A stretch of 41,887 bases of DNA from a virus (lineage: Duplodnaviria > Caudoviricetes): IMG/VR virus record IMGVR_UViG_3300049781_000046, positions 1-41,887 of that record; one strand, 5' to 3'. Below the pieces are notes generated by a model. It was not told where the DNA came from. It searched no databases and saw nothing but the letters and a program-made list of their open reading frames with translations. Positions within the stretch are counted from its first letter, which is position 1; every line of letters begins with the position of its first letter. Both the position numbers and the translations under genes were made by a program. Positions 3 to 41,887 of this stretch are shown one piece after another.

Positions 3-1463
3 ACCGAGGCCGGCGCGGTCCCGGAGAAACGCGGCGAGGAGATCCGCGGCGTCGGCATCCCCCACAGTGAAGGCCCCGGTATCGCCTTCGCCGTCCACAC
101 GCCGTCCGGTATTCCTGCCGCGGTCGCCGTCGGCAAGAAGCAACAGATCGCCGCCGCCCTCGGTGTGCACTCCGACTGGATCGACCTGTCCGTCGGCAGC
201 GTCGAAACCCTGCTGCAGATCTGGGTAGCCAGCGAGGACCCGTTCGCCAGCGCCCACGTCTCCCCGCTCATTGGGCACAAGGGGGCCCTCGACTTGTGGA
301 ACGAGGGGGCCCCCATCGCCTTCGGGAAGCGCGGTAACACCGTATGGCTCCGCGTCCGCGACACCATGATCCTGGTCGGTGGTGCCACACGTCGCGGCAA
401 GGGCGTGTTCATCGCCAACCTCAACTTGGGCGCCGCTAAGGACGTGCGGGTCAACCTGCGGCTGTTCGACGGCAAGGCATCCGGCGAGCACAACGCGTCC
501 GCGCGGATCCTCGCCACGTTCGTCAAGAAGAACCCGGAACGGCTGGCCTTGTTCCTGCGGGCCGTTCTGGAGGACATGGACCGCCGGGCCGACTTTCTCG
601 ACGAGCGTGGCAAGGCGAAGCTCACAGAGGATCTCATCGACGAGATCGGCGGCATCGAACTCATCGACATCGACGAGCTGGCCACCTATACCGCGAAGTT
701 CACCAGCCCCTTCCGAGACGAGATCATCGAGAGCTTGTGCCAGATTGCCGCTGTCGGCGCGAGCCTAGGCGTGCTGCTGGTGTGCGCCACCCAGGTGCCC
801 GAGGTCGACGTCGTGCCGGCGCGGCTGCGGCAGAACCTCATCTCCCGGGCGTCCATGAACACGGAGTCGCCGCAGGCCTCGAACACGATCCTCGGCGACG
901 GCATGGCTGGCCAGGGCTACGACGCGTCGTTGATTCCGCTCAACCAGCCGGGCCGGTTCTGGTTCAAATCGCCAGACCTTGGCACTGTCTCCCTGCGCAG
1001 CTTCTTCATTGACGACGACGACAAGCCGCCGATCATTGCCGACGCCTACGAGTTGCGGAAGGCTGCGGGCCGGCTGCCTGGTCAGTGGCGCGACCCGATC
1101 GAGGAGAGGCTGATCGCCTGGACCGGAGTCTCGTCGGCAGCAGGCGGGGAGCGCGGCAACGGGCGCATCGTCCGCGTCACTCTGCTGGAGCGGCTGGAGG
1201 CGATCGCCCGCGCGACCGGCCGCGGGGGAGCGAGCAACGCCGAGGTGTTCGCCGCGCTTGCGGCCTCGAACCCGGCCAAGTATTGCCGCCAGGACGGTGA
1301 GACAGACCGCGGCTGGACCACCCGCGTCGGCAAGATCCTCAAGGACGAGATCGAGAGCCTCGGTGTCGACCTGGACGTAAAGCGGGTCCCCGGCCCCGAC
1401 GGAGAGCGCACCCCCGGCTACCTCCTCTCCGACATCACTGCCGCCCGGAATGTCCACAGTTGA
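3..1463 (+). CDS. FtsK/SpoIIIE-family DNA translocase, Streptomyces TraB-like (5' partial)
   Basis: Frame open from base 3; Walker A-like GGATRRGKG, DGK motif, Walker B LIDIDE, CATQ motif typical of FtsK/HerA ATPases; extra C-terminal domain. Confidence 0.8.
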   Translation, partial: TEAGAVPEKRGEEIRGVGIPHSEGPGIAFAVHTPSGIPAAVAVGKKQQIAAALGVHSDWIDLSVGSVETLLQIWVASEDPFASAHVSPLIGHKGALDLWNEGAPIAFGKRGNTVWLRVRDTMILVGGATRRGKGVFIANLNLGAAKDVRVNLRLFDGKASGEHNASARILATFVKKNPERLALFLRAVLEDMDRRADFLDERGKAKLTEDLIDEIGGIELIDIDELATYTAKFTSPFRDEIIESLCQIAAVGASLGVLLVCATQVPEVDVVPARLRQNLISRASMNTESPQASNTILGDGMAGQGYDASLIPLNQPGRFWFKSPDLGTVSLRSFFIDDDDKPPIIADAYELRKAAGRLPGQWRDPIEERLIAWTGVSSAAGGERGNGRIVRVTLLERLEAIARATGRGGASNAEVFAALAASNPAKYCRQDGETDRGWTTRVGKILKDEIESLGVDLDVKRVPGPDGERTPGYLLSDITAARNVHS

Positions 1464-3737: not shown

Positions 3738-3983
3738 ATGAGCGTCACCGACCTGTACCCCGAAGACCTCGTCTTCGAGCACGAAGCATCGGCCGCAACC
3801 GGCATACCCGGCCCGGTGATCCGACAGTGGGCCAGGCGCGGCAAAGTCCGCCGCTTCCCAGGCCGCCCCGGTGAATACTCCGGCCAAGGCCACGAATACA
3901 AGACGCTGTACGCCCTGCCCGACGTGAAGGCCCGAGCCGCCACCTACCGGCCCATGCCGCAACGCGCCCGCCGCGCTGCCTGA
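3738..3983 (+). CDS. Small MerR-like HTH DNA-binding protein
   Basis: EASAATGIPGPVIRQWARRGKV pattern. Confidence 0.7.
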   Translation: MSVTDLYPEDLVFEHEASAATGIPGPVIRQWARRGKVRRFPGRPGEYSGQGHEYKTLYALPDVKARAATYRPMPQRARRAA

Positions 3984-3985
3984 TC

Positions 3986-4115
3986 TCCCGTCGCCCGGTC
4001 GTCCCCCCGTCACGGGCGGCGGGACTCCAACGTCCGCCGCCTGGCGTCCGAGGCTGGAGAGTCTCACGCGGGAACACGGGCCCGCAGGGTGCGCAGCGCC
4101 AGGCGGCGGACACCA
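3986..4115 (+). ncRNA. Candidate structured RNA: 6C-loop hairpin plus a multibranch stem ending in ACCA
   Basis: Stem 3986-3997/4013-4024 with CCCCCC loop; perfect 15-bp stem 4032-4046/4097-4111 enclosing two small hairpins, followed by ACCA. Confidence 0.4.
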
Positions 4116-4199: not shown

Positions 4200-4775
4200 A
4201 TGCACGTCCGCAGAGCCGCCTGCACCGCCCTGCTCCTGGCAGCCACCGCCACCGCATGCAGCAGCAGCGACGAACCCGACACCATCCGCGTCACCGTCAC
4301 AAAGACCGCGCCCGCCACAACCAGCAGCCCGCCGCCCAGCCCGGCCGACAGCACGCTGAAGATGGGCGCCACCAAGACCATCGACGACGACGCCAACAAT
4401 GTCCACATCACCATCCAGGCCCTGGCCTACGAGCAGCCCGTCAAGGGCACGCAACCCCAGAAGCCCGACGCCGCCCTAGGCGGAGACACCTGGTCCACGG
4501 TCAACGTCAAGGTCTGCAACGTCAGCGGGCCCAACATCAACGTCAGCCAGACCCCCTGGTCCCTCGCCTACGCCGATGGCACCAGCGTCGAGACCACCGG
4601 GCTCAGCGGCGGCGACATGCCCAAGCCCGAGTTCCCCATGGACAAGGCCGTCAAGGCTGGCCGCTGTGCCGCGGGCCTCATCGCCTTCCCCGTAGAGGGC
4701 AGCAAGACGCCGGTGCGCGTCGTCTACGAGCCCGACGGCACAGAGCCCACCGAGTGGGCGGTCACCGCGTCCTGA
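4200..4775 (+). CDS. Lipoprotein with Ig-like/DUF4352-type domain
   Basis: Signal peptide with lipobox ATAC-SSS, Pro/Thr linker, beta-rich domain ending VVYEP. Confidence 0.8.
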   Translation: MHVRRAACTALLLAATATACSSSDEPDTIRVTVTKTAPATTSSPPPSPADSTLKMGATKTIDDDANNVHITIQALAYEQPVKGTQPQKPDAALGGDTWSTVNVKVCNVSGPNINVSQTPWSLAYADGTSVETTGLSGGDMPKPEFPMDKAVKAGRCAAGLIAFPVEGSKTPVRVVYEPDGTEPTEWAVTAS

Positions 4776-5374: not shown

Positions 5375-5812
5375 GTGCTGTACGTCGTCACCGGCCCGCC
5401 GGCCGCAGGCAAGTCCAGTTGGATCGACGCACACGCCAAGGCCAGCGACATCGTGATCGACCTCGACCGCATCACGTCCGCGCTGACCGGGCCAGGCGCA
5501 CCGCAGTGGAACCAGCACCCACTCCACCTGAGGGTCGCTCACCGTGCCCGGTACGCAGCCATGGACGCAGCCTTCGAACTACTCGACCAGTGCGACGTCT
5601 ACCTGATCCACACCATGCCCAACGGCAAAGCGATGGCGAAGTACAAGCGACTGAAGGCACGCATCGTGACCGTGGACCCAGGCCAGGACATCGTCATGCA
5701 GCGCATCAAGGCGATGCGGTCCGTCGACATGGAGCGGGTCGCGACGCGCTGGTACAACGCCCGACGCAGGCTGCCGCATGAGGCGATGCCCCAGGCGTCC
5801 AGATCCTGGTGA
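5375..5812 (+). CDS. Small P-loop (AAA/kinase-like) protein
   Basis: N-terminal VVTGPPAAGKSS and DIVIDLD. Confidence 0.85.
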   Translation: MLYVVTGPPAAGKSSWIDAHAKASDIVIDLDRITSALTGPGAPQWNQHPLHLRVAHRARYAAMDAAFELLDQCDVYLIHTMPNGKAMAKYKRLKARIVTVDPGQDIVMQRIKAMRSVDMERVATRWYNARRRLPHEAMPQASRSW

Positions 5813-6059: not shown

Positions 6060-6338
6060 ATGAGCGGACTCGTCGACAAGATCGAAGCCGAACTCGAAGA
6101 TCTCCACGCGCACGAGACTTCCCCAGGTATGGCGGCCGTCGCTGTCGAGCTCGCGAAGGCGATCGTCGAATCGGACGCTCCCACCGCCAAGGCGGTTGTC
6201 GCCGAAAAGCTACGCACGATCATGGCCGACCTCCGCAAGCAGGCCCCCGTCGAGTCGAAGGGGGATGCCGTCGATGACATTGGTGAGCAGCGAAAGAAGC
6301 GCCAAGCAGCAGCCCGCAAGCAGGCGGCCGGACAGTGA
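6060..6338 (+). CDS. terS: Terminase small subunit (putative)
   Basis: Small helical protein overlapping the large terminase start; DAVDDIGEQRKKR C-terminus typical of actinophage TerS. Confidence 0.7.
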   Translation: MSGLVDKIEAELEDLHAHETSPGMAAVAVELAKAIVESDAPTAKAVVAEKLRTIMADLRKQAPVESKGDAVDDIGEQRKKRQAAARKQAAGQ

Positions 6339-26777: not shown

Positions 26778-26854
26778 GAAATGACCGTCCCGTGCCACAC
26801 TGGCCGTGCGCCTAGGAACGCATCGCGCCCGGTTCGGGCAGCAGAAGGCCCGCC

Positions 26855-26884
26855 TCGCATCCCCCGTCGAGGCGGGCCCTTTGC
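26855..26884 (-). terminator. 3' part of terminator hairpin (full stem about 26847-26878) after the small membrane gene
   Basis: GGCCCGCCTCG...CGAGGCGGGCC flanked by AGAA and TTT. Confidence 0.6.
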
Positions 26885-26886
26885 TG

Positions 26887-27318: not shown

Positions 27319-28197
27319 ATGCCCCGAACCATCTGGAGCGGCGCGATCAGCTTCGGCCTGGTCACCGTGCCGATTCACGTGCAGTCGGCAACCGAAAACC
27401 ACTCGATCCAGTTCCACCAGTACCACCTGGAGGACATGGGCCGGGTGCGCGTCAAGAAGGTGTGCGAGATCGAGGACCGCGAGATCGCCCAGTCGGAGAT
27501 CGGCAAGGGCTACGAGTACGCCAAAGACAAGGTCGTCCCCATCTCGGATGAGGAGCTGCGGGACCTACCGCTGCCCACGGCGAAGGCCATCGAGATCGAA
27601 GCGTTCGTGCCGCTCGACAGCATCGACCCCATCCAGATCGGCGACGGCTACTACCTCGCCCCCGACGGCCAGGTCGCGGCGAAACCGTACAAGCTGCTCG
27701 TGCAGGCGTTGGGCCGGTCGTCGAAGGTGGCCGTCGCCAAATACGCCTGGTCCGGGCGCGAACGGCTCGGCCTGCTCCGCATCCGGGACGGCGCGATCGT
27801 CCTGCACGCCATGCACTGGCCCGACGAAATCCGCGACCCAGCCGTCGTCGACCCGCCCAACGAGCAGGTGTCGGACGAGGAGATCGAAGGCGCCCTCGCC
27901 CTCATGGAGACGATGACCCGCGACGACCTCGACGGGCCGGAGTTCGAGGACGCCTACACCGACGCCCTCGCCAAAATCATCGAATCGAAGCGGGAAGACA
28001 AGCCCCTCCCCGAGGTCGCAGAGCCGGAGCAGCCGGCGAAGGTCCTCGACCTCATGGCCGCCCTGACCGAGTCGGTCGAGAAGGCCAAGGCATCCCGCGG
28101 CGAAGACGCCGACGTACACGAAATGCCGAAGAAGAAGACCGCGGCTAAGAAGGCGGCGAAGAAGCAGCCCGCCAAGCGGAAGCCGCGGTCTGCCTAG
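27319..28197 (+). CDS. ku: Ku (NHEJ DNA end-binding) protein
   Basis: MPRTIWSGAISFGLVTVP, IGKGYEY, YYLAP, VLDLMAALTESV, Lys-rich tail. Confidence 0.96.
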   Translation: MPRTIWSGAISFGLVTVPIHVQSATENHSIQFHQYHLEDMGRVRVKKVCEIEDREIAQSEIGKGYEYAKDKVVPISDEELRDLPLPTAKAIEIEAFVPLDSIDPIQIGDGYYLAPDGQVAAKPYKLLVQALGRSSKVAVAKYAWSGRERLGLLRIRDGAIVLHAMHWPDEIRDPAVVDPPNEQVSDEEIEGALALMETMTRDDLDGPEFEDAYTDALAKIIESKREDKPLPEVAEPEQPAKVLDLMAALTESVEKAKASRGEDADVHEMPKKKTAAKKAAKKQPAKRKPRSA

Positions 28198-31355: not shown

Positions 31356-32648
31356 TCAAACCGAACTTGGGAGACGGTTGGGAGATCGTTTTCTTCGGGA
31401 GGGCTTCAGTGGGGGATACGGGCCGAACTCGCGGCAGTCCGTGACGACCTTCAACGAGCCCTCCCACAGCCTCTGGAGGTGCTCGGCGATCGCCAGTTCC
31501 ATCGCCAACGTCACATGCGAGTATGTGCCCTCGACGCCCTGGAGCACATGCCCCATCCGTGCCTCAACAGCAACCCTAGGATGATTCCCCTCATCCAGCC
31601 AGACCTTCTGAGAATGCCTCAGACCGTGCGGCGTCAGCCCCTCGACACCCAGCACTGGACGAACTCCCGGCCGGGCCTTCGCACCCCGAACCACGCCCCG
31701 CGGCGCTCGCCCCGACACCATGGGCTGCCACGTCTCCGCGTACCAGTCCCCGCCCCTCAGCAGCCGGCCGCCCCTGGGGGCCGTGAACACCCACTCGCTC
31801 TTGGGGCGGGAGTCCATCAGCTCCTGGAGCAAATCAGCGAGGAACGGCGGCAGGATGAGGCCGCGCCCGGAGTCGTATTTGTTGTCGATCTCGGTGAACT
31901 CCCCGCTGATGTACTGGCTCTGCTGCACCGAGTGCAAGCGCGCGCCTTCCCCGGTGTCCTTCAGGGTCAGCTGGTCGCGGTGCACGCCTGCCACTTCACC
32001 GATGCGCAGGCCCGTGTAGGCGGAGGCCAGCACGATGGCGTATTCGTTCAGTCCGCGCATCTCCAGGGCGTTGCGTGCGATGAGCAGCACCTGCCGCGGG
32101 GTGGCGATGACCTTCTCGTCCTTCGGTTTCGGTTTGTACTTGCCACGGCGGCCCGACTTGCGTGCGGCAACCGGGTTGTCGCTGCGTAGCTTCTCGGCGA
32201 CCGCGTCGTCCATCATCGTGCGGAACGTCGACATGACGTTGTCGGCGTAGTTCTTGGAGAGGGATGCCCGCAGGCGCTTCTCCCAGGCGGCGATCCCTGT
32301 CGGTGAGAGGTCGCCGACGGCGACGGAACCCCATGCAGGGAGGATCTGGTTCTTCAGCCTAAGCCGGTACTCCTTCTCACTGAGTGGGCCGACGTCGATG
32401 GAGGGCAGCCAGGCCTGGGCCCATTCTTCGACGGTGGTGCGGCCGTCGCGCGGGTTGATGAACTGTTTGCGGCGCACGTCGACTTCGAGGCCGTGCGCGT
32501 ACTGCTCGGCGGCCCGCTCGGTGTAGAAGGGCTGGCCGTTGTCGTCTTTGGAGACGGAGCCCCACTTGCCGTTGGGGAGTTTGTACCTGCCGCGCCAACG
32601 GTGCTTGCGGGCTTGCTTGTCGTAGCCGCGTTTCTCCGCGTGCGCCAT
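31356..32648 (-). CDS. int: Tyrosine integrase
   Basis: YTGLRIGE, HGLRHS, RMGH...TYSH catalytic residues; N-terminal arm-binding domain. Confidence 0.96.
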   Translation of the reverse strand: MAHAEKRGYDKQARKHRWRGRYKLPNGKWGSVSKDDNGQPFYTERAAEQYAHGLEVDVRRKQFINPRDGRTTVEEWAQAWLPSIDVGPLSEKEYRLRLKNQILPAWGSVAVGDLSPTGIAAWEKRLRASLSKNYADNVMSTFRTMMDDAVAEKLRSDNPVAARKSGRRGKYKPKPKDEKVIATPRQVLLIARNALEMRGLNEYAIVLASAYTGLRIGEVAGVHRDQLTLKDTGEGARLHSVQQSQYISGEFTEIDNKYDSGRGLILPPFLADLLQELMDSRPKSEWVFTAPRGGRLLRGGDWYAETWQPMVSGRAPRGVVRGAKARPGVRPVLGVEGLTPHGLRHSQKVWLDEGNHPRVAVEARMGHVLQGVEGTYSHVTLAMELAIAEHLQRLWEGSLKVVTDCREFGPYPPLKPSRRKRSPNRLPSSV

Positions 32649-32710
32649 GGTCACCTCGCGCATTGATCACTGATGGCTGAACTGTGGCATGCAGTGGGGG
32701 GTGCTGCCTA

Positions 32711-32926
32711 TCAGCCTGTGACTGCTCTGAGGGTGCGCAGAACGGCGTCGTTGTCGATGCGCTGCCATCCGGCCACGGTGGTGCGCAGTATCCGCTGCAA
32801 TGCGGTGGCGCCCTGGTCGGTGATGAGCTTCTTGTCGATGTAGATCGTGAAGCAGTCGACGCCGTCGTCGATCCACACTTCAACGTTGTACGGCATCCCT
32901 GACACACGCAGAACCCGCAAGCACAT
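32711..32926 (-). CDS. Hypothetical protein co-oriented with cI and int
   Basis: GGGGGA RBS then ATG; MCLRVLRVSGMPYNVEVWID... Confidence 0.55.
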   Translation of the reverse strand: MCLRVLRVSGMPYNVEVWIDDGVDCFTIYIDKKLITDQGATALQRILRTTVAGWQRIDNDAVLRTLRAVTG

Positions 32927-33031
32927 AGGTCCCCCAAGACCACTGCGGGCGCCCCCCATTGTGGTGTCCGGATATGACACCACACGTTCGGGTGGTGCGG
33001 GAGGGGATGTGCGCAATGAGTGTGCGGGAGG

Positions 33032-33589
33032 TTACGAACCGTTGGCAGCGCGGGGTTCGTCGCCGCCATCGTCGTCGTCCGGAAGGCGCCTCAGGTTCTC
33101 CTCGGCCCGCCGCCACGCGAGCAGCGCTTCCTGGATCTGCTGCGGTGTCGCCTCGGGGGCGCCGTGCACGACCACGGTCATGCGGGCGCCGTTCACGCCA
33201 GGCAGCTGGATGACGGCGGAGTCGAGCAGCGGGTCGTCGGACTCCAGTTCGTCCACAATCCGCAGCGGAAGCTTGCGGCGCAGCTTGTCGGCTTCGACCT
33301 CGCCGTGTTCGCCGGGGGGAGTGTCGGGGGCGGGGACGGGGTCGCCGCCGTCGAGGATGAGGCGCCCGGAGCCGACCGCCCAGCCGAGGTGCGGTTCGAT
33401 TTTGGCGAGGGTCTGCGGCATGCGGTTACGGGGCTTGCCGGCTTCGAGGTTCTGAACGCTCCCCTCGGCGATGCCGGCGAGCATGGCGAGGGCCTCCTGC
33501 GAGAGCCCTCGGGCTTCGCGGGCCGCTCGGATGGCGGTTGCGAGCCGTGGCCACTGCAGCTTGGTCCGGTCCTCTGTCATGGCCTTCAT
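33032..33589 (-). CDS. CI-like immunity repressor (XRE)
   Basis: IRAAREARGLSQEALAMLAGIAEGSVQNLEAG; divergent from cro; start 33589 or 33580. Confidence 0.85.
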   Translation of the reverse strand: MKAMTEDRTKLQWPRLATAIRAAREARGLSQEALAMLAGIAEGSVQNLEAGKPRNRMPQTLAKIEPHLGWAVGSGRLILDGGDPVPAPDTPPGEHGEVEADKLRRKLPLRIVDELESDDPLLDSAVIQLPGVNGARMTVVVHGAPEATPQQIQEALLAWRRAEENLRRLPDDDDGGDEPRAANGS

Positions 33590-33812
33590 GATGCACCACC
33601 GTTAGGCAACACGCACCCACTGAATCCCCTAATTGACCAGGATTGATCGGTCTTGGGGGCGCTTTTTTGTTGCCTCGTTAGCGCCTTATTGCGCTTGCGC
33701 CCCGCATTCACTCCCACGCACTCCGTGCACCTCTGGCCACAGGTTCAGGCGTGCGGCACCACGAAACACCCAACGAAGCCCGAACAACACCCAAGGAATC
33801 CGGCACAACGCC

Positions 33813-33842
33813 TTGCGGCTGCGTCATGGTTGGGTCTACGTT
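33813..33842 (+). promoter_or_regulatory. Early lytic promoter (leaderless cro)
   Basis: TTGCGG-N18-TACGTT, 7 nt before GTG 33850. Confidence 0.55.
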
Positions 33843-33849
33843 GAGCCCT

Positions 33850-34113
33850 GTGAGACCCAACGGAGCCGCAATGAAGGCAATCCGCGAGGCACGGGGGATC
33901 AGCCTTCGGCAGCTCGCAAAGGAAATCGGCAGAGACCCGGGCTTCCTGTCCCGCGTCGAGGACGACCAACAGGGCGCCAGCGACGAAACCCTCCGCCTTT
34001 ACGCCACGTACCTCCGCGTCCCCACCCGCGCAATCACCCACAAGGAGACCCCCCGTGACCAGGACCGACCTGGCTCCCCCCAGCGAGACGACTCTGATCC
34101 TGCGCCTGACTGA
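33850..34113 (+). CDS. Cro-like HTH protein
   Basis: MRPNGAAMKAIREARGISLRQLAKEIGRDPGFLSRVE. Confidence 0.85.
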   Translation: MRPNGAAMKAIREARGISLRQLAKEIGRDPGFLSRVEDDQQGASDETLRLYATYLRVPTRAITHKETPRDQDRPGSPQRDDSDPAPD

Positions 34114-34366
34114 GATCAAGGAAGCCGTTGAGCGGCTGGCCGCAGCCTCCACCGCGGCCGAGCTGGAGCTCACTGCCTTCACGCCGGCCAAGGCCGCCGA
34201 ACTCCTCGGCAAGACCGAGAACTGGGTGGTCGAGGCCATCCAGGACGGCCGAATCCCCCACACCTACGTCGGCAAGTCGCCGCGCATGACGGCCGACCAC
34301 ATCCGCTGGGTCCTCGCCAACGGCGAGCGCAAGCCCAACCAGTACGCCAAGCCCATCGCCGCCTGA
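34055..34366 (+). CDS. Excisionase-like HTH protein
   Basis: FTPAKAAELLGKTENWV...GRIPHTYVGKSPRM; RBS AAGGAG. Confidence 0.75.
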   Translation: MTRTDLAPPSETTLILRLTEIKEAVERLAAASTAAELELTAFTPAKAAELLGKTENWVVEAIQDGRIPHTYVGKSPRMTADHIRWVLANGERKPNQYAKPIAA

Positions 34367-34469
34367 GACGGCAAACGCCCCGACCGCCGGGGGCTACCGG
34401 CAGCAGGGGCGCCGCGGCCCTAGAGCCGCCGATCCACACCACCAGAACGCAGAGACAGGAGCGTGGACC

Positions 34470-34778
34470 GTGTCCACTTCATCTTCCCAGAAGCCGAAGA
34501 GCTTCTACGCGGACATCCCGCCCCAGGTGTACGAGATCACCTGGCAGTCCGGCCACGTCGAGCGGGTCATCGCCCACCAGGTTTCCCACGACACGCTGCG
34601 GGTGCGCGTTGCCGCCCTCGGCGACGGCGCGTTCGGAACCGACAGCGAGGGTGCCCGGATCAAGTTCCACGCCGAGGTCGACGGGCGTTGGACGTTGCAG
34701 TTGTCGGCGCACGAGGCGGACATCCGCACGATCCGCAACATCACGGATGGCGAGCAGGCTCCCGGCGGTGCCGCATGA
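34470..34778 (+). CDS. Hypothetical early protein
   Basis: RBS AGGAG; coupled to the next gene. Confidence 0.65.
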   Translation: MSTSSSQKPKSFYADIPPQVYEITWQSGHVERVIAHQVSHDTLRVRVAALGDGAFGTDSEGARIKFHAEVDGRWTLQLSAHEADIRTIRNITDGEQAPGGAA

Positions 34779-35506
34779 CCGACTACCCGGAGATCGCTGC
34801 CCGGTTCGCCCGGGACACGGCCGCCCACGAGATGGTCGTCCTGCACGACGACGGCCTGTACCGGCACCTGCGGTTCTCCGCCCCCCAGGGCGGCTTCTAC
34901 TGGTACGACCTGATCACCGTCCCCTACGCGTTGATCTTCCGAGGCGACGGCGAGTCCTACGTCTTCTCCATCGACGCGACCGAGGACATGTTCGTCCTCT
35001 TCCGGAAGTCCAGCTACAAGGGGTCGATCAACCCCGGCTACTGGTCTGAGAAGCTCCGCAGCAGCCGGAACGCCGCAACGGCCTACAGCCAGAAGCTGTT
35101 CGAGGGAGAGGTTGCTCGCGACCTGGCGATCGCCGAAGAGGACTACCCCGGCATCACCGAGGCCTGGAACGAGCACGTCGAGTCCGAGTTCAACATCGAG
35201 TACGAGGACGAGGCTCGCCGCGCCCTCGACGAGTTCCGCTTCGGCGAGAAGCACCGCGCCTCGTGCAGCGAGTGCGACTGGGAGTTCGAGAGCGAGAGCA
35301 GCACGGCCGCCTCGCTGAAGCTGCACCGCCACCGCAAGGAGACTGGCAACGAGCACACCGGCAGCGTCCGCGACCTCACCTTCGCCTTCTCGGACACGTG
35401 GGAGTGGCAGCTCCAGGACTTCAACTGGTGGTTCCTGTGGGCCTGCCACGCGATCCTCGCAGGCGTCGGCCAGTACGACGCCGCCCGGAAGCAGGTGGCC
35501 GCATGA
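34775..35506 (+). CDS. Conserved phage hypothetical protein with a C2H2-like insert
   Basis: HDDGLYRHLRF...YWYDLIT...INPGYWSEK...FLWACHAI; CSEC...H..H segment. Confidence 0.8.
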   Translation: MTDYPEIAARFARDTAAHEMVVLHDDGLYRHLRFSAPQGGFYWYDLITVPYALIFRGDGESYVFSIDATEDMFVLFRKSSYKGSINPGYWSEKLRSSRNAATAYSQKLFEGEVARDLAIAEEDYPGITEAWNEHVESEFNIEYEDEARRALDEFRFGEKHRASCSECDWEFESESSTAASLKLHRHRKETGNEHTGSVRDLTFAFSDTWEWQLQDFNWWFLWACHAILAGVGQYDAARKQVAA

Positions 35507-35961
35507 ACGCCGAGCAGTGGAACTCGCTGCACCCCGTCGGCACGCTCGTCTTCGCCTACCCGGGAGCCCGTCCGGAAGACGACGCGAACGACGAGCGCCT
35601 GGTGACCCGCACCCGTAGCAAGGCCGAGGTGCTCGGTGGCCACACCGACGTCGTCTGGGTCGACGGGCACAGCGCCTGCATCGCCCTCACCCACGTCGAC
35701 CCGATGTCGGAGAGCGTGTGGCAGGCGGCGAAGGAAGCCGAGGCGGTCGCGGAGGCCGCGAAGCCGAAGGACACGCTCGCCCCCTGGCTGGCCAACCGCT
35801 TCGACCCGAACGGCGCCACGTGGGACGGCATGTCCGACGACGACCGCACCTACTGGCAGCACCAAGCCCGCGCCGTCCGCCGGGCCGTCGCGCGCGGCGG
35901 CTTCAAGGAGCAGGCCGCCGTTCTCGCCCCCACCCACACCACGCCCGAGGAGGGCCGATGA
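35503..35961 (+). CDS. Hypothetical early protein
   Basis: ATGA coupling; WNSLHPVGTLV...VVWVDGHSACIAL. Confidence 0.75.
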   Translation: MNAEQWNSLHPVGTLVFAYPGARPEDDANDERLVTRTRSKAEVLGGHTDVVWVDGHSACIALTHVDPMSESVWQAAKEAEAVAEAAKPKDTLAPWLANRFDPNGATWDGMSDDDRTYWQHQARAVRRAVARGGFKEQAAVLAPTHTTPEEGR

Positions 35962-36503
35962 CCGCCACCCAGGCGTGGCCGTTCGGTACCGACGCCATCG
36001 AGACCGACCCGCTCACCGCGCTCCGCATCCCGGTCGTTCGCAGCTTCAACCCAAGCTGGCACTACGTCGCCGCCTACCTCGGCACCAGCGCCGACACCGG
36101 GAACACCTTCGACCCGCCGTGGCCGTTCGCGTCGGCCGAACGCCCCACCGACGCCGAGGCCCGAATGCTCGCCTCGTTCCTGCTGGAGCACCGCAACTAC
36201 TGGTTCGGCAACGAGGGCTACGCCCGAAAGATGGACCAGCGCCCGCTCGACGTCGACTCCGGCTGGAACACCGTCGTGTTCATCAAGTACGCCGCTGACG
36301 ACTGGGGTTACCGCCGCTGCTCGTGGACCTACGGGCTGACCTTCGTACCCGAGCCGCCGAACTTCCCGAACCGCAAGCGCGGCCCGCTGCCGCTGGAGCA
36401 GGTCATGGACCGCATCCACGCCCACGGCGACGAGCCGTCACCCCGCTGGCGGCAGTGGAAGGCCAACCACCCCGACATCTTCCCCGCCCTGGAGGCGTCG
36501 TGA
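35958..36503 (+). CDS. Hypothetical early protein
   Basis: ATGA coupling; RBS GGAGG. Confidence 0.7.
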   Translation: MTATQAWPFGTDAIETDPLTALRIPVVRSFNPSWHYVAAYLGTSADTGNTFDPPWPFASAERPTDAEARMLASFLLEHRNYWFGNEGYARKMDQRPLDVDSGWNTVVFIKYAADDWGYRRCSWTYGLTFVPEPPNFPNRKRGPLPLEQVMDRIHAHGDEPSPRWRQWKANHPDIFPALEAS

Positions 36504-36751
36504 AGCGCACCGAGATCTACGGCGGGATCACCGTCAACCTCAACGACGGCCCCATCCGGACCGCCTACGGCCGCGACACCAACGGCAAGCAGACCGCGCA
36601 GCTCGTCATCGGCGAGGTCGGCGAGTCGATCGGCATCGCCGTCACCCAGTCCGACCTCCACACCATCGAGCAGCTGGAGGCTGTGGTCGCCGAGCTGAAG
36701 GCGTGGCGGGAACGGCAGAACAAGCTGCACGCCCTGCCGGAGGTGGCCTGA
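36500..36751 (+). CDS. Hypothetical early protein
   Basis: GTGA coupling; RBS GGAGG. Confidence 0.65.
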   Translation: MKRTEIYGGITVNLNDGPIRTAYGRDTNGKQTAQLVIGEVGESIGIAVTQSDLHTIEQLEAVVAELKAWRERQNKLHALPEVA

Positions 36752-36993
36752 TGACTACCGACCTCGACGGCACGCCCATCGACCTCGACCGTGCACTGAT
36801 CGCCCTCGACGGCTCCCGCTGGCTGTGGACGTTCGAACACACCGAGTCGGGTGAACCCCTGATGCTCCGCATCGACACCCGCGCGGCCGCGATCCTGCCG
36901 CTGCCGGTCGTCTACCGCGACCACGGGCCGGTCATCGCCGCCCGCCAGCCCACCACTGCCGCCATGTACCGGCAAGTCCTGGAAGCCGCCTGA
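36751..36993 (+). CDS. Hypothetical early protein
   Basis: TGATG coupling; DLDRALIALDG.RW...VYRDHGP. Confidence 0.7.
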   Translation: MTTDLDGTPIDLDRALIALDGSRWLWTFEHTESGEPLMLRIDTRAAAILPLPVVYRDHGPVIAARQPTTAAMYRQVLEAA

Positions 36994-37109
36994 TGGGCGC
37001 CGCGATCTGGTTCGGAATCGGCTTCATCTGCGTCGTGTGGCTGCTCATCGTCGTCCACGAAATCCGCCACTTCGACCAGGCCCCGGCCGCCCCCAAGGAG
37101 CACCAGTGA
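36993..37109 (+). CDS. 38-aa single-TM peptide
   Basis: TGATG coupling; MGAAIWFGIGFICVVWLLIVV. Confidence 0.55.
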   Translation: MGAAIWFGIGFICVVWLLIVVHEIRHFDQAPAAPKEHQ

Positions 37110-37558
37110 GCCTCGCAAGCCTCCTGCCCGTCAGGCTCGGCCTCTTCGACCGCAGCCACCGCCAGCCGAAGCACCGCGCCAGCGACGAAGTGACACGCCT
37201 CCAGCACAAGCTGGCCGGGGCTGAACTCCTCATGGCCGGCTACCGCATCCAGCTCGACGACCTCCACCGCGACCACGCCGAGACGATCGCCCGGATCGAC
37301 GAACGCCACGGTGAGATCGTCCGCGGGCTGGAGCAGCAGATCGAGGACCTGGAGCGGCGGTTGGACACCCGCGTCCTCGCCGAGAACGTCGTCACGAAGA
37401 CGCAGGAGATCCCCATCCCGCCCGACCTTCAAGCACGCTTCGCCGCGGGCCGGGCTGTGACGCTGGAGCACTCCCCGCAAGCCGTCCCGCCACCGAACCT
37501 GCCGCCCTGGGCGGCCGAAGACCGCACAGCCATCCACTTCCCTCAGGCGAGGCCGTGA
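37106..37558 (+). CDS. Coiled-coil hypothetical protein
   Basis: RBS AAGGAG; KHRASDEV followed by a heptad region. Confidence 0.7.
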   Translation: MSLASLLPVRLGLFDRSHRQPKHRASDEVTRLQHKLAGAELLMAGYRIQLDDLHRDHAETIARIDERHGEIVRGLEQQIEDLERRLDTRVLAENVVTKTQEIPIPPDLQARFAAGRAVTLEHSPQAVPPPNLPPWAAEDRTAIHFPQARP

Positions 37559-37782
37559 TGGCGGTCGTCTCGAAGGTCGTGTACGTCGCGGCCTGCGACA
37601 TTCCCGGCTGCCACGAGGTGTACGGCGAAGACCCCGAATGGGCCTACCACTTCGACACCCGAGAGGCCGCACTCGCATGGGTCGACGACGGCACCGGCTG
37701 GACGAAGGACGGCGACCGGCTCATCTGCCCGGCCGACGACCGCACACACGACCAGGCCCGCATCCCCGGCCTGCTCCTCTAA
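37555..37782 (+). CDS. Small Zn-finger-like protein
   Basis: CDIPGC...GW...ICP...H. Confidence 0.65.
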   Translation: MMAVVSKVVYVAACDIPGCHEVYGEDPEWAYHFDTREAALAWVDDGTGWTKDGDRLICPADDRTHDQARIPGLLL

Positions 37783-37886
37783 CCCGCCAGCCGCCCGGTG
37801 CACCTGCCCGGACGGTCGGCGCACAAGAAGAAACCCCGCCCGATGACAGCGAGCGGGGGTCCACCACCACTCTCTCAGGAGATCCC

Positions 37887-39074
37887 GTGTCCGTCACGAT
37901 CAACGCTCACCAGCTCGGGCTCATGCTCGACAAGACAACCGCCCACATGGGCGGCGACCACGTCGAGCAGCTGCACGGCGTCCGCCTCGACACCGACGCC
38001 CGCTACCTGTACGCGGTCGCCACCGACGCCTACACGCTGGCCGCCGCCCGCTACAGCCTCAACAAGGGCGACTGCGACCAGGAGCCGTGGGCCGCCCTCC
38101 TCCCCGGGGGAGCCGTCGCCACGGTCCGCGAGTGGGCGCGCGCCATGAAGGGCGCCGACTGGATCACCGTCAGCCTCTCCAAGGACCGCCTCGTCTTCGA
38201 AGGCCCCAACACCGACCTGAACATCACCGTCAACACCGCTCAGAACTACCCGGACTGGCGCGGCCTGTTCCGCCGCATCGCCGCCCAGACCGTCGACGGC
38301 GAACCGTTCCCCGCCCTCAACTCCGACTACCTGCAGCGTTGGGCATCGGCAGAGCAGAGCCTCCGCACCCGAGTGACCGCGGACCGCAAGGCCGTCCTCT
38401 TCTTCGGCGAAGACTTCATCGGCGCCCAGATGCCCACCACCGGCGGCGGCATCGGCCCGTCCAAGAACCAGACCATCGACGACGCGAAGAGTCTGTGGCA
38501 GTGGACGCTGTCCGCGGGCGCCACGGACGTCGACATGGCCAGCCTGCCGAAGCCCACACCGCCCCGCTTCGACGCCAGCCACGACATCAGCGAAACCGCG
38601 TCCATCCTCCTCAAGGGCGTCCTCGAGTCCACGCAGAACGCCCAACTGTCCGACTGGGATGAGGACCAGAACGCCTGGTACGCGCACATCCGCTCCGGTG
38701 TCTCCGACTGGATGGCCTACCGGTTCCTCGACGCCCTCCACCAGGTCGACCCTCGCACCGCTCAGGCCGTGATCGACGACACCGCCGAGCAGCTCGACTC
38801 GGGGGAGCTCGGCGAGTGGGCCTGGGACATGGCCGAGCAGTCCGGCTTCAGCCCGAAGCAGTGGCAGGACGACCACGAGAAGCGGGTCGCGAAGCAGATG
38901 GCGGAGGAGCCCCGCAAGTGGGCGGTCCGCCTGGCGCGCGGGCTGAACGACGCCAGGAAGGCCGGGATCAACTTCCGCGTCGACGACAACCCGTTCGTCA
39001 CCTACGACGCCGAAGCCGAGGAGTGGAAGGCCGTCAAGCCGCAGCCCGCCGAGCCGGCCGACGCCACCGCCTGA
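37887..39074 (+). CDS. DNA polymerase III beta-clamp-like protein with C-terminal extension
   Basis: LHGVRL, AVATDAYTLA, YPDWRGLF, ALNSDYL, FIGAQMP resemble DnaN motifs. Confidence 0.65.
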   Translation: MSVTINAHQLGLMLDKTTAHMGGDHVEQLHGVRLDTDARYLYAVATDAYTLAAARYSLNKGDCDQEPWAALLPGGAVATVREWARAMKGADWITVSLSKDRLVFEGPNTDLNITVNTAQNYPDWRGLFRRIAAQTVDGEPFPALNSDYLQRWASAEQSLRTRVTADRKAVLFFGEDFIGAQMPTTGGGIGPSKNQTIDDAKSLWQWTLSAGATDVDMASLPKPTPPRFDASHDISETASILLKGVLESTQNAQLSDWDEDQNAWYAHIRSGVSDWMAYRFLDALHQVDPRTAQAVIDDTAEQLDSGELGEWAWDMAEQSGFSPKQWQDDHEKRVAKQMAEEPRKWAVRLARGLNDARKAGINFRVDDNPFVTYDAEAEEWKAVKPQPAEPADATA

Positions 39075-39090
39075 CCAACAACCCCATACC

Positions 39091-39170
39091 GGCCGTGTCG
39101 AGTCCCCCCAACTCCGCGGCCACCCAGGCGGCCAGCCCCGCACCACCCCCCCTGGTCGGGGCTGGCCGTC
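39091..39170 (+). ncRNA. 6C-like RNA (two hairpins with C6 and C7 loops)
   Basis: Hairpin 39091-39121 with loop CCCCCCA; hairpin 39127-39170 with loop CCCCCCC; intergenic. Confidence 0.65.
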
Positions 39171-39199
39171 ACCCATCAGCACACCTTCAGGAGAGTCAC

Positions 39200-39382
39200 A
39201 TGAGCACCGAAAGCACCACAAAGCAGGTGGCGCCACTCGCGTGCACCCGCTGCGGCGACGAAGTCGGGCCGTTCACCAAGGACGGCCTGTGCGAGGAGTG
39301 CGAGCCCGAGACCGCCAGCGCCATGCGCGGCGCGCTGGAGGACAACGCCAGCGACATCGTGGTCTCCGGAGTGAACCGGTGA
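39200..39382 (+). CDS. Small Zn-finger protein
   Basis: CTRC...CEEC; RBS AGGAG. Confidence 0.65.
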   Translation: MSTESTTKQVAPLACTRCGDEVGPFTKDGLCEECEPETASAMRGALEDNASDIVVSGVNR

Positions 39383-40224
39383 CCGCCGCGGTGGAGGTGG
39401 AGGCGCCGGCCGAGGTCGAGGCGGGCGTGTACGACAGCGTCCCGTCCGAGGTCTACCACGCCGACCCCGTACCCGGCGGCAGCCTCTCCTCGACCGGCGC
39501 CCGCAAGCTCGCCACCGAATGCCCGGCCGCCTTCAAGCACTGGCTCGACAACCCCGAGCCGACCAAGAAGGAGTTCGACTTCGGCACCGCCGCCCACAAG
39601 GTCGTCCTCGGCGACGGGCCCGAACTCGTCCTCGTCGACCGCGACCGCTGGGACACCAACGAGGTCAAAGAGCGGATCAAGAAGATTCGCGCCGCCGGGA
39701 ACATCCCGCTCAAGCGGCGCGACCTCGACAGGGTCCACGCCATGGCGGACGCCCTCCGCCTCCACCCCGAAGCCGCCGAACTCCTCGAACCCGGCAGCGG
39801 AGTCGCCGAACGCACGATCATCTGGAACGACCGCGGAGTCTGGCGCCGCGTCCGCATCGACTGGGCCCGCCACGACGGCACCCTCGTTGACTACAAGAGC
39901 TGCAAGTCAGCCAACCCGTCGAAGCTGACCAGCCACCTCTTCGAGTACGGCTACCACCAGCAGCAGGAGTACTACCGCGACGGCGCCCTGGAGTTCGGGC
40001 TCACCGAGCTGGTCTGCCCGTTCAAGTTCATCTTCCAGGAGAAGGAACCGCCCTACCTGGTCTCGGTGATCGAGCTCGACTCGGCTGCCTGCGCCATCGG
40101 CAAGCACCTCAACGAGGTCGCCCTCAACACCTACGCCCTCTGCCGCCAGAACGACGCATGGCCCGGCTACCTCCAGACCCCGCTCATCTCGCCGCCGGCC
40201 TGGCTCGCCAACCAGTACCGCTAG
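39379..40224 (+). CDS. RecE/ExoVIII-like PD-(D/E)xK exonuclease
   Basis: YHAD...SLSSTG, FGTAAH, RVRIDW, LVDYKS, YGYHQQQEYY, QEKEPPY. Confidence 0.9.
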   Translation: MTAAVEVEAPAEVEAGVYDSVPSEVYHADPVPGGSLSSTGARKLATECPAAFKHWLDNPEPTKKEFDFGTAAHKVVLGDGPELVLVDRDRWDTNEVKERIKKIRAAGNIPLKRRDLDRVHAMADALRLHPEAAELLEPGSGVAERTIIWNDRGVWRRVRIDWARHDGTLVDYKSCKSANPSKLTSHLFEYGYHQQQEYYRDGALEFGLTELVCPFKFIFQEKEPPYLVSVIELDSAACAIGKHLNEVALNTYALCRQNDAWPGYLQTPLISPPAWLANQYR

Positions 40225-40234
40225 GAGAACCTGC

Positions 40235-41023
40235 ATGTCCCAGCTCGGAAAGCCCGTCCAGACCGGCCGCCCCGCGGCCGAACAGAACGGCAACGCAGCA
40301 CAGTTCGCGTTCCGGCCCGCCAGCAAGGCCGGCCGCAAAGCCCGCCTGTCCATCCAGGGCATGTCGGGCTCCGGCAAGACCTGGACCGGACTCGGCATCG
40401 CCCACGGCCTGTCCGAAGGCCGCCGCTTCGCCGTCATCGACACCGAGAAAGGAGCAGCCAGCCTCTACGCCGGCATCAGCGGCATCCAGTTCGACACCCT
40501 CGCCATGGACCGCTACGACCCCCGCGACCTGGCCCGCGCCCTCGACGCCGCCGCACAGGCGGGATACCCGACCGTGTTCGTCGACAGCCTCTCCCACTTC
40601 TGGAAGGGGACCGACGGCACCCTCGACCAAGTCGAAAGGGCCAGCAGCCGGTACGGCGGCAACAAGTTCGCCGGCTGGAAAGACGGCACCCCCATCCAGA
40701 ACGACATGGTCGCCGCGATCCTCGCCTACCCCGGCCACGTCGTCGCGTCGATGCGCTCCTACACCGAGTGGGTCCTGGACGGGGGCAAGCCGAAGCAGGT
40801 CGGGACCCGGCCCGAGCAGCGCAAGGGCATCGAGTACGAGTTCGACGTCGCCGTGGCAATGGACATCGACAACACCCTCGAAGTCCTCAAGTCCCGCTGC
40901 CCCTCTCTGAACCGGCAGGTCATCAAGCGGCCGAACGGCGCCCGCGACATCGCCGGCCCGCTCCTCGCCTGGCTGGCTTCGAACCCCCAGTCCGAGACGG
41001 ACCCCGACACCACCGAGCAGTAG
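40235..41023 (+). CDS. Sak4-like AAA ATPase (recombination)
   Basis: GMSGSGKT, IDTEKG, VDSLSHFW, EYEFD; follows the exonuclease. Confidence 0.85.
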   Translation: MSQLGKPVQTGRPAAEQNGNAAQFAFRPASKAGRKARLSIQGMSGSGKTWTGLGIAHGLSEGRRFAVIDTEKGAASLYAGISGIQFDTLAMDRYDPRDLARALDAAAQAGYPTVFVDSLSHFWKGTDGTLDQVERASSRYGGNKFAGWKDGTPIQNDMVAAILAYPGHVVASMRSYTEWVLDGGKPKQVGTRPEQRKGIEYEFDVAVAMDIDNTLEVLKSRCPSLNRQVIKRPNGARDIAGPLLAWLASNPQSETDPDTTEQ

Positions 41024-41100
41024 CCCGCACACGCGAAGGCCGGCCGCGGGCAGCGCGGCCGGCCGCCACCCAGAACACCACACCCCGAAGGGAGCACGCC

Positions 41101-41436
41101 ATGCCGCGCCTCACGCTCGCCGAACAGGTCGCCGCCGACGCCCGCGACAAAACCCTCACCCAACTCGTCCGCCAGGCCTCCGACTGGGACCGCAACGTCG
41201 TCGCCCAGGCCGTCCTCATCTGGATGCGCGACCACGACACCGTGTCCGCGAACGACTTGCGCGACCAGCTGCCCGACGTGGCCGGCGGCGTCCTGCCCGG
41301 CGTGCTGCGCGGCATGTCGCACAACTTCCTCATCGGCACTGGGGACTTCGTGCCGTCCACGGCGCCCGCCACCAAGGGACACCGCATCGCCGTCTACCGG
41401 AAGCGCACCGCCGCAGACCGGGCGGAGGCGGCGTGA
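41101..41436 (+). CDS. Hypothetical winged-helix-like protein
   Basis: RBS GGGAG; VSANDLRDQLP...STAPATKGHRIAVY. Confidence 0.7.
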   Translation: MPRLTLAEQVAADARDKTLTQLVRQASDWDRNVVAQAVLIWMRDHDTVSANDLRDQLPDVAGGVLPGVLRGMSHNFLIGTGDFVPSTAPATKGHRIAVYRKRTAADRAEAA

Positions 41437-41675
41437 TGGCCACCTTCTTCGCCGCCATCGCGATCGGCATCGCCGCCGCGGCCGTCGTCGCCGCACAAAT
41501 CCGCCGGGCCCTCCGCGGCGGCGACTACCGCACCCGCAACGACCGCCGGCAGGCCGCATGGCTGGTCCTCTGCGAACCCCGCCCCGAACCCGCCGCACCC
41601 GGCACCAACGACGAACTCCTCGCCGCCTGCAACCAGCTCTGCCCCGACCTCGCACGGAAGGAGGGCCAGCCGTGA
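41433..41675 (+). CDS. Small membrane-anchored hypothetical protein
   Basis: N-terminal hydrophobic helix; coupled at both ends. Confidence 0.6.
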   Translation: MMATFFAAIAIGIAAAAVVAAQIRRALRGGDYRTRNDRRQAAWLVLCEPRPEPAAPGTNDELLAACNQLCPDLARKEGQP

Positions 41676-41887
41676 GCCGCCACGACTGGATGGATCAGGC
41701 GCTCTGCGCCCAAACCGACCCCGACCTGTTCCACGCCGAAGGCAGCGGCAGCAGCTACAACAACGCCAAAAAGGTCTGCGCCCGCTGCCCTGTCGCCCGC
41801 CAGTGCGCCGACTTCGCCCAGGCCGTCGAAGGAGACGCCTCCCCCAGCTGGCGCTTCGGCCTATGGGGTGGCAAAGCCCCCCGCGCC
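41672..41887 (+). CDS. WhiB-family Fe-S regulator (3' partial)
   Basis: W...ALCAQTDPDLF...AKKVCARCPVARQC...FGLWGG. Confidence 0.93.
   Translation, partial: MSRHDWMDQALCAQTDPDLFHAEGSGSSYNNAKKVCARCPVARQCADFAQAVEGDASPSWRFGLWGGKAPRA

Follow-up and report, generated by a model that had tools for sequence, protein, structure and literature searches.

The DNA analyzed here, referred to as the window, is the whole of record IMGVR_UViG_3300049781_000046 (41,887 nucleotides; 41.9 kb, 68% G+C). PHROG and Pfam matches identify terminase, portal, capsid, tape measure, endolysin, repressor, cro, excisionase, recE-like exonuclease and AAA ATPase genes, together with a tyrosine integrase (31356-32663, minus strand), and, judged from this gene content, the phage is a temperate siphophage. 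A recE search of bacterial genomes found 17 loci, all 17 of them in Streptomyces, and we therefore infer a Streptomyces host. The plasmid-like phase considered in a first-pass annotation of this DNA left no sign: tyrosine integrase, repressor and excisionase are present, and no partition family was found in the 53 ORFs scanned. The phage also encodes a Ku protein (27319-28197, plus strand), an FtsK-like ATPase (165-1463, plus strand) and a DUF4352-like protein (4200-4775, plus strand).

The locus of interest lies in the rightward early operon. Its upstream gene (37887-39074, plus strand) has a sliding-clamp-like N-terminus (PF02767 with E 5.6e-5, below cut-off; phrog_947 and phrog_12598) and ends with a TGA stop codon at 39072-39074. 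Downstream are a 60-aa ORF with two CxxC motifs (39200-39382, plus strand), which has no match in Pfam or PHROG and is replaced by unrelated genes in relatives, and a recE or exonuclease VIII-like gene (39379-40224, plus strand; phrog_412, E 1e-85; PF12684), which served as the positional anchor in what follows. Between the clamp-like gene and the 60-codon ORF, folding confirmed the two adjacent hairpins with C6 and C7 loops (39091-39170) noticed earlier, and their assignment to the early operon is borne out.

The element starts 16 nt after the clamp-like gene, behind an A/C-rich single-stranded 5´ flank (39075-39090). Hairpin 1 (P1, 39091-39121) has stems of 7 bp and 4 bp separated by a 2-nt bulge, and its loop reads CCCCCCA (39104-39110, with the C6 run at 39104-39109). 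A linker (39122-39126), 5 nt here and 1-8 nt in relatives, leads to hairpin 2 (P2, 39127-39170), with stems of 14 bp and 4 bp, a 1-nt bulge and a C7 loop (39146-39152) that is the longest C run on the plus strand of the whole window. The A/C-rich 29-nt tail (39171-39199) holds a conserved CACACC-like word and the Shine-Dalgarno sequence of the next gene (39189-39193), with no U tract. The folding z score is -6.5 on the plus strand, where 0 of 200 shuffles did as well, and -2.4 on the minus strand; counts of G-U versus A-C (22 versus 15) do not fix the strand. Operon direction and folding z together point to the plus strand as the functional one. No sigma-70-type promoter was found in 32500-41887 by a scan that is insensitive here, finding none at the repressor/cro divergence either. 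In the probable source run, two contigs abut at 39127-39131, where their letters agree and no piece spans the junction; near-identical full copies at two other loci (L054 and L026) argue against an assembly artefact.

Temperate phages and prophages of the Streptomyces type yielded 54 distinct copies in total, almost all of which were shown to lie upstream of recE. A model built from nine copies (R1) reached its threshold of 30 bits in 40 of 52 phage sources, these being the window and 51 recE loci, with four duplicate loci left out. Among the 12 misses, five have less than 400 nt of sequence upstream of recE and one (L019) keeps hairpin 1 only. In 36 held-out recE regions, a second model (R2) scored above 40 bits in 12, one of which repeats the L014 locus, and 32.5 bits in one more. 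Across 151 Streptomyces genomes, with 23 candidates scored per genome, R2 matched at least eight, five of them strongly; three new strong matches lie in prophage regions, and recE was shown downstream in two of these. Isolated phages yielded no copy, either by blastn, which against isolated phages and plasmids returned only short chance-level pieces, or with R2 on OnionKnight and the recE regions of four other actinophages, where the best score was 16 bits. An exact DNA pattern of the element gave 0 matches in IMG/VR because the stems diverge. There are natural variants: one copy (L078; L125:15316-15484) has a third C-loop hairpin in front, L019:9560-9683 has hairpin 1 only, and loop 1 has been lost at L014:7930-8033 and L017:8821-8939. 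With one-loop losses and a third-loop gain among them, the 54 natural variants form a test set for how C loops choose their targets.

Stems and loops both bear the marks of selection. Covariation, whose absence the first-pass annotation had counted among the signs against its reading, was found: across 39 copies, 93% of cells are paired and 19 of 25 pairs changed on both sides, with a covariation score of 0.43 (shuffled controls reached 0.11 and slid ones no more than 0.075), in an alignment whose copies were chosen as model matches and which, being model-fitted, leans towards the hand-set structure of nine sequences. A MAFFT alignment of nine copies with that hand-set structure agrees (9 of 25 pairs changed on both sides); RNAalifold on the plain MAFFT alignment recovered only four pairs because the stems are out of register there. 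Two-sided changes affect 4 of 9 pairs in P1 and 15 of 16 in P2. When 38 copies were folded singly, every z was at or below -3.2, with a mean of -6.5. Loops with at least five C occur in 62 of 67 motif hairpins, whereas none of the 79 other hairpins that follow stop codons in these operons has one, and in host DNA 1 of 101 post-stop hairpins has a C5 loop; thresholds were slightly stricter for both sets of control hairpins than for the motif. At least five C are kept in loop 2 of 51 of the 54 copies and in loop 1 of 44. The 6C-like build proposed earlier corresponds to a conserved, covarying structure, and this is a well-supported family of phage RNA structures with C loops under selection.

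The element always begins shortly after a stop codon (12-31 nt before P1 in copies with a reliably called upstream gene), and recE loci without it (L023, L061, L132, L133 and L138) have one plain GC-rich hairpin in the same slot. Both observations suit a U-less intrinsic terminator, a pause site, or a structure for RNase processing or stabilization that tunes recE and the later early genes, with the C loops read by a host protein such as Rho, NusA, an RNase or a KH protein. The U-less early terminators of the phiC31 type are likewise GC-rich hairpins that directly follow a stop codon within an early operon and have no U tract; they differ from the element in lacking its twin hairpins and conserved C loops. 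No U-tract terminator was found at the element, where tails are A/C-rich; this is not decisive in Streptomyces, where terminators need no poly-U tail according to PMC2602773, which cites Ingham 1995 on phiC31. C-rich stem-loops are also mentioned as alternative terminators in PMC6486639, single C5-loop hairpins follow stop codons elsewhere in the carriers (5 of 86, and also at 3986-4026 of the window), and no target co-occurs with the RNA. Nevertheless, termination alone does not need C loops: they are absent from all 79 neighbouring post-stop hairpins and present in a single one of the 101 from host DNA; the retention of two such loops through stem turnover is left unexplained, and the protein partner is itself conjectural. 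We regard this explanation as the main and a serious rival, though less probable than the small-RNA reading set out below. A small RNA and a terminator are compatible, should some transcripts terminate at hairpin 2 and leave a 3´ fragment that acts as the RNA. Even if the element were only a terminator, it would still show selection for C loops in U-less actinophage hairpins.

Alternatively, the element could act in cis on translation of the next gene, with a loop-bound protein setting ribosome access. The distance from P2 to the ATG, 24-31 nt in the 30 copies measured, is 28-29 nt in 21 of them, and the tail word is conserved, despite varying lengths of P1 and P2; moreover, the N-terminal codons are alike even where the downstream gene has been replaced. 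The downstream gene is, however, one of at least four unrelated kinds, and its Shine-Dalgarno sequence is unpaired in most single folds and has no G5 run for the loops, which makes cis control improbable in our view. Upstream neighbours are just as varied (nine clusters and 11 singletons), and we therefore conclude that the element is not tied to one gene. We also observed that the first codons after the element (39200-39230 in the window, and in relatives) stay alike (MST...) while the remainder of the gene changes from one unrelated protein to another; the start of this gene is likely a module boundary.

Resemblance to known RNAs offers a different line of evidence. Like 6C RNA (RF01066), with which the first-pass annotation compared it, the element consists of two adjacent GC-rich hairpins with C-rich loops of at least five C, spans about 75-80 nt and occurs in a high-GC Gram-positive setting. 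Membership in the 6C family did not survive an Infernal search. Rfam returned 0 hits at gathering cut-off over the whole window, the 6C model scored 19.1 bits (E 4) against a cut-off of 47 with only hairpin 2 aligned, and two other copies searched against Rfam gave no 6C match. Conversely, at four host 6C loci the matches of R1 and R2 cover hairpin 2 only (18-21.5 bits). Host 6C, listed as scr3558 in S. coelicolor in PMC8539372, has a linker of 0-2 nt and an unbulged P1, whereas the phage element has a 5-nt linker and a bulged P1. In C. glutamicum 6C has its own promoter (PMC5014011), whereas the phage element sits inside an operon and no promoter was found for it by the insensitive scan described above. 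PMC9569102 notes additional 6C copies in mycobacteria, on plasmids as well as chromosomes. Closest in shape is Scr3202 (RF02833), with a short interrupted P1, a 5-7 nt linker, a long P2 and two C-rich loops; its model aligns over its whole length to the window copy with 26.3 bits (cut-off 52), and gave 15.4 bits and no match, respectively, on two other copies. The phage models have no match at five host Scr3202 loci, and host Scr3202 copies often end in a U-rich tail, which the phage element lacks. By these comparisons the element is a separate 6C-like family, distinct from 6C and Scr3202, which at most would work like 6C.

The hosts of these prophages do carry 6C (four of five genomes) and Scr3202 (five of five), with the same two-loop build, and it is conceivable that the phage RNA is a decoy soaking up a host factor that normally binds them. 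We consider this very improbable, given that two C-loop RNAs cannot pair with each other and that, in the mycobacterial work covered by PMC6486639, saturating mutagenesis revealed no protein partner for 6C. A phage precedent of another kind is the C4 antisense RNA of phages P1 and P7, which, according to PMC5320573, arises by processing of a longer transcript as an RNA of about 77 nt, whose two loops act on ribosome-binding sites and steer the choice between lysis and lysogeny. C4 has a three-stem fold and target-specific loop sequences, whereas the loops here are plain C runs; the element has no three-stem fold and no Rfam match to C4.

The reading we rank first, with a probability of about 0.5, is that the element is a trans-acting small RNA made from the early operon, which would block translation through base pairing between its C loops and G-rich ribosome-binding sites. 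It is placed first because the constraint on both loops matches the minimum of five G-C pairs and the dominance of the 3´ loop described for 6C of M. tuberculosis in PMC6486639, and because the element ignores its neighbours. The 3´ loop is the better kept here as well (51 versus 44 of 54 copies), parallel to its dominance in 6C. In this model, the early transcript would be processed or terminated to release the twin-hairpin RNA, a step suggested by analogy with C4 RNA (PMC5320573), giving a discrete RNA of perhaps 80-110 nt that could act in trans, and its loops would then occlude G-rich ribosome-binding sites as 6C RNA does. The best-placed phage targets would be the G5 leaders of the integrase and of the small gene before it, and repression of this operon might bias the phage towards lysis on induction or infection. 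Other candidate targets are host mRNAs with G5 leaders (22 of 171 sampled genes) and the late genes of this phage. The comparative target tests, described below, came out negative or not significant. The near-constant distance to the next ATG, the single plain hairpin in the same slot of five recE prophages that lack the motif, and the short gap of 12-31 nt before P1, with no promoter-like site found, also weigh against this reading.

The late genes had been the original suggestion. All seven starts named in the first-pass annotation carry a run of 5-6 G, and such G-run leaders read as variants of the Shine-Dalgarno sequence. Two of the seven were labelled wrongly: the ORF at 6060, called terS, has no PHROG match, and the terminase small subunit matches 5375-5812 instead, while the ORF at 32926 (minus strand) sits between repressor and integrase and is not a late gene. 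The proposed excess in late leaders is seen in this genome, where, by raw counts from a simple gene caller with an anti-Shine-Dalgarno motif, G5 is found in 8 of the 21 late leaders and in none of the 15 early ones. It did not extend to relatives. Late genes of other carriers have G5 leaders in 11 of 66 cases (with regions set approximately and relatedness uncorrected), near the host frequency of 22 of 171, and OnionKnight, with no model match, has G5 on 6 of 61 annotated starts (genes 12, 18, 21, 25, 27 and 62; none of genes 33-55). Late genes were therefore rejected as a conserved target set. In early operons of carriers the count is 25 of 453. Across the window (1-41887), GC skew is negative over the early genes and near zero or positive over the late genes, and composition alone may favour G-run leaders in the late region.

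Other candidate signals were also dropped. A small initial control suggested about twofold avoidance of G5 on the early strand, but in the held-out set this difference was gone, and carriers (4.6 per 10 kb) showed no stronger avoidance than non-carriers (3.9 per 10 kb). The host gene dnaB, a 6C target in mycobacteria, has a G5 leader in none of five Streptomyces genomes. A 10-nt match of loop 1 and its flank to the leader at 4200 had been picked after the fact and was not used.

The integrase operon initially appeared more promising. In the window, the candidate target is the leader (32927-32960, minus strand) of a 71-aa ORF (32926-32711) between repressor and integrase, with a G6 tract at 32952-32957 and a G5 tract at 32931-32935. 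Both tracts are kept in L015/L036, L018, L040 and L057, where the ORF is 54-75% identical. In the carriers, 22 of 49 leaders in the repressor-ORF-integrase operon have G5, as against 25 of 453 in their early operons (relatedness uncorrected), a contrast that speaks for the small-RNA reading. At distances of up to 620 nt from the integrase start, a start codon preceded by G5 is present in 22 of 25 carriers, which span six integrase subfamilies. G-run leaders at the position of ORF 32926 are also found in prophages without the RNA. In an earlier control, G5 occurred in 3 of 10 phage-like non-carriers (p 0.49). The held-out test found G5 on the integrase or the preceding gene in 6 of 10 carriers versus 12 of 16 non-carriers (p 0.66); it excluded L222 as a repeat, L233, and any locus lacking an integrase on the opposite strand, and the entry for L254, which has a TTG start, was counted by eye. 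The held-out set thus does not support the integrase operon as a carrier-specific target. The fit of loops to their own targets, as expected from co-adaptation, was not significant (p 0.08-0.17, n=24).

Most Streptomyces prophages of the recE type (L011-L059 and L222-L255), whether they carry the element or not, have a GGGGG ribosome-binding site on the integrase or the preceding small gene, across unrelated integrase subfamilies, which raises the question of why the integrase operons of these prophages so often start in this way. A broader version of the trans-acting model would have the phage 6C-type RNA form an RNA layer of the lysis-lysogeny switch, silencing G-run sites of the integrase, its upstream gene and host mRNAs, with prophages that lack the RNA relying on host 6C and Scr3202 for the same G-run code. 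Reading of the code by host RNAs would explain the G-rich leaders of non-carriers too, and we consider this scheme unlikely. The G tracts of ORF 32926 can also form cis pairs with C-rich sequence that follows the stop codon of the repressor (32920-33035, minus strand; -42.8 kcal/mol), in a predicted fold that encloses a further hairpin; this pairing might be an mRNA switch for the part of the operon comprising the ORF and the integrase.

According to PMC6486639, chaperone-free RNA regulation in Actinobacteria has a single worked-out route, that of the C-loop sRNAs. Searches of the open-access literature, in which PMC8388888 and PMC3765725 were among the sources covered, found no description of a C-loop sRNA in a Streptomyces phage or of the twin C-loop element. 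It may already be present, as a candidate without name or function, in PMC10690425, where a supplementary table gives three DNA-virus candidates with Streptomyces hosts, one of them 76 nt long (DNAVirus_1060).

Finally, hairpins with C-rich loops occur outside the twin element. In the window, single hairpins with C5-C6 loops are found at 3986-4026 (plus strand) after ORF 3738-3983, at 26839-26886 (plus strand) near the end of ORF 27180 (minus strand), and at 32681-32708 (minus strand) just before the integrase. A second kind of single post-stop C5-loop hairpin lies in distal parts of carrier prophages (L117:7202, L127:6802 and L188:18812, minus strand; L123:12067, plus strand). OnionKnight has, in its early operon downstream of recE (L075:31895-31960), a post-stop hairpin that has a C-rich loop and an element-like tail and gives no model match. 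In one Streptomyces genome, a twin C-loop hairpin (L082; G102:C1:3717244-3717366), scoring 32.7 bits with R2, precedes a secreted-protein-like gene and is possibly another host C-loop RNA.
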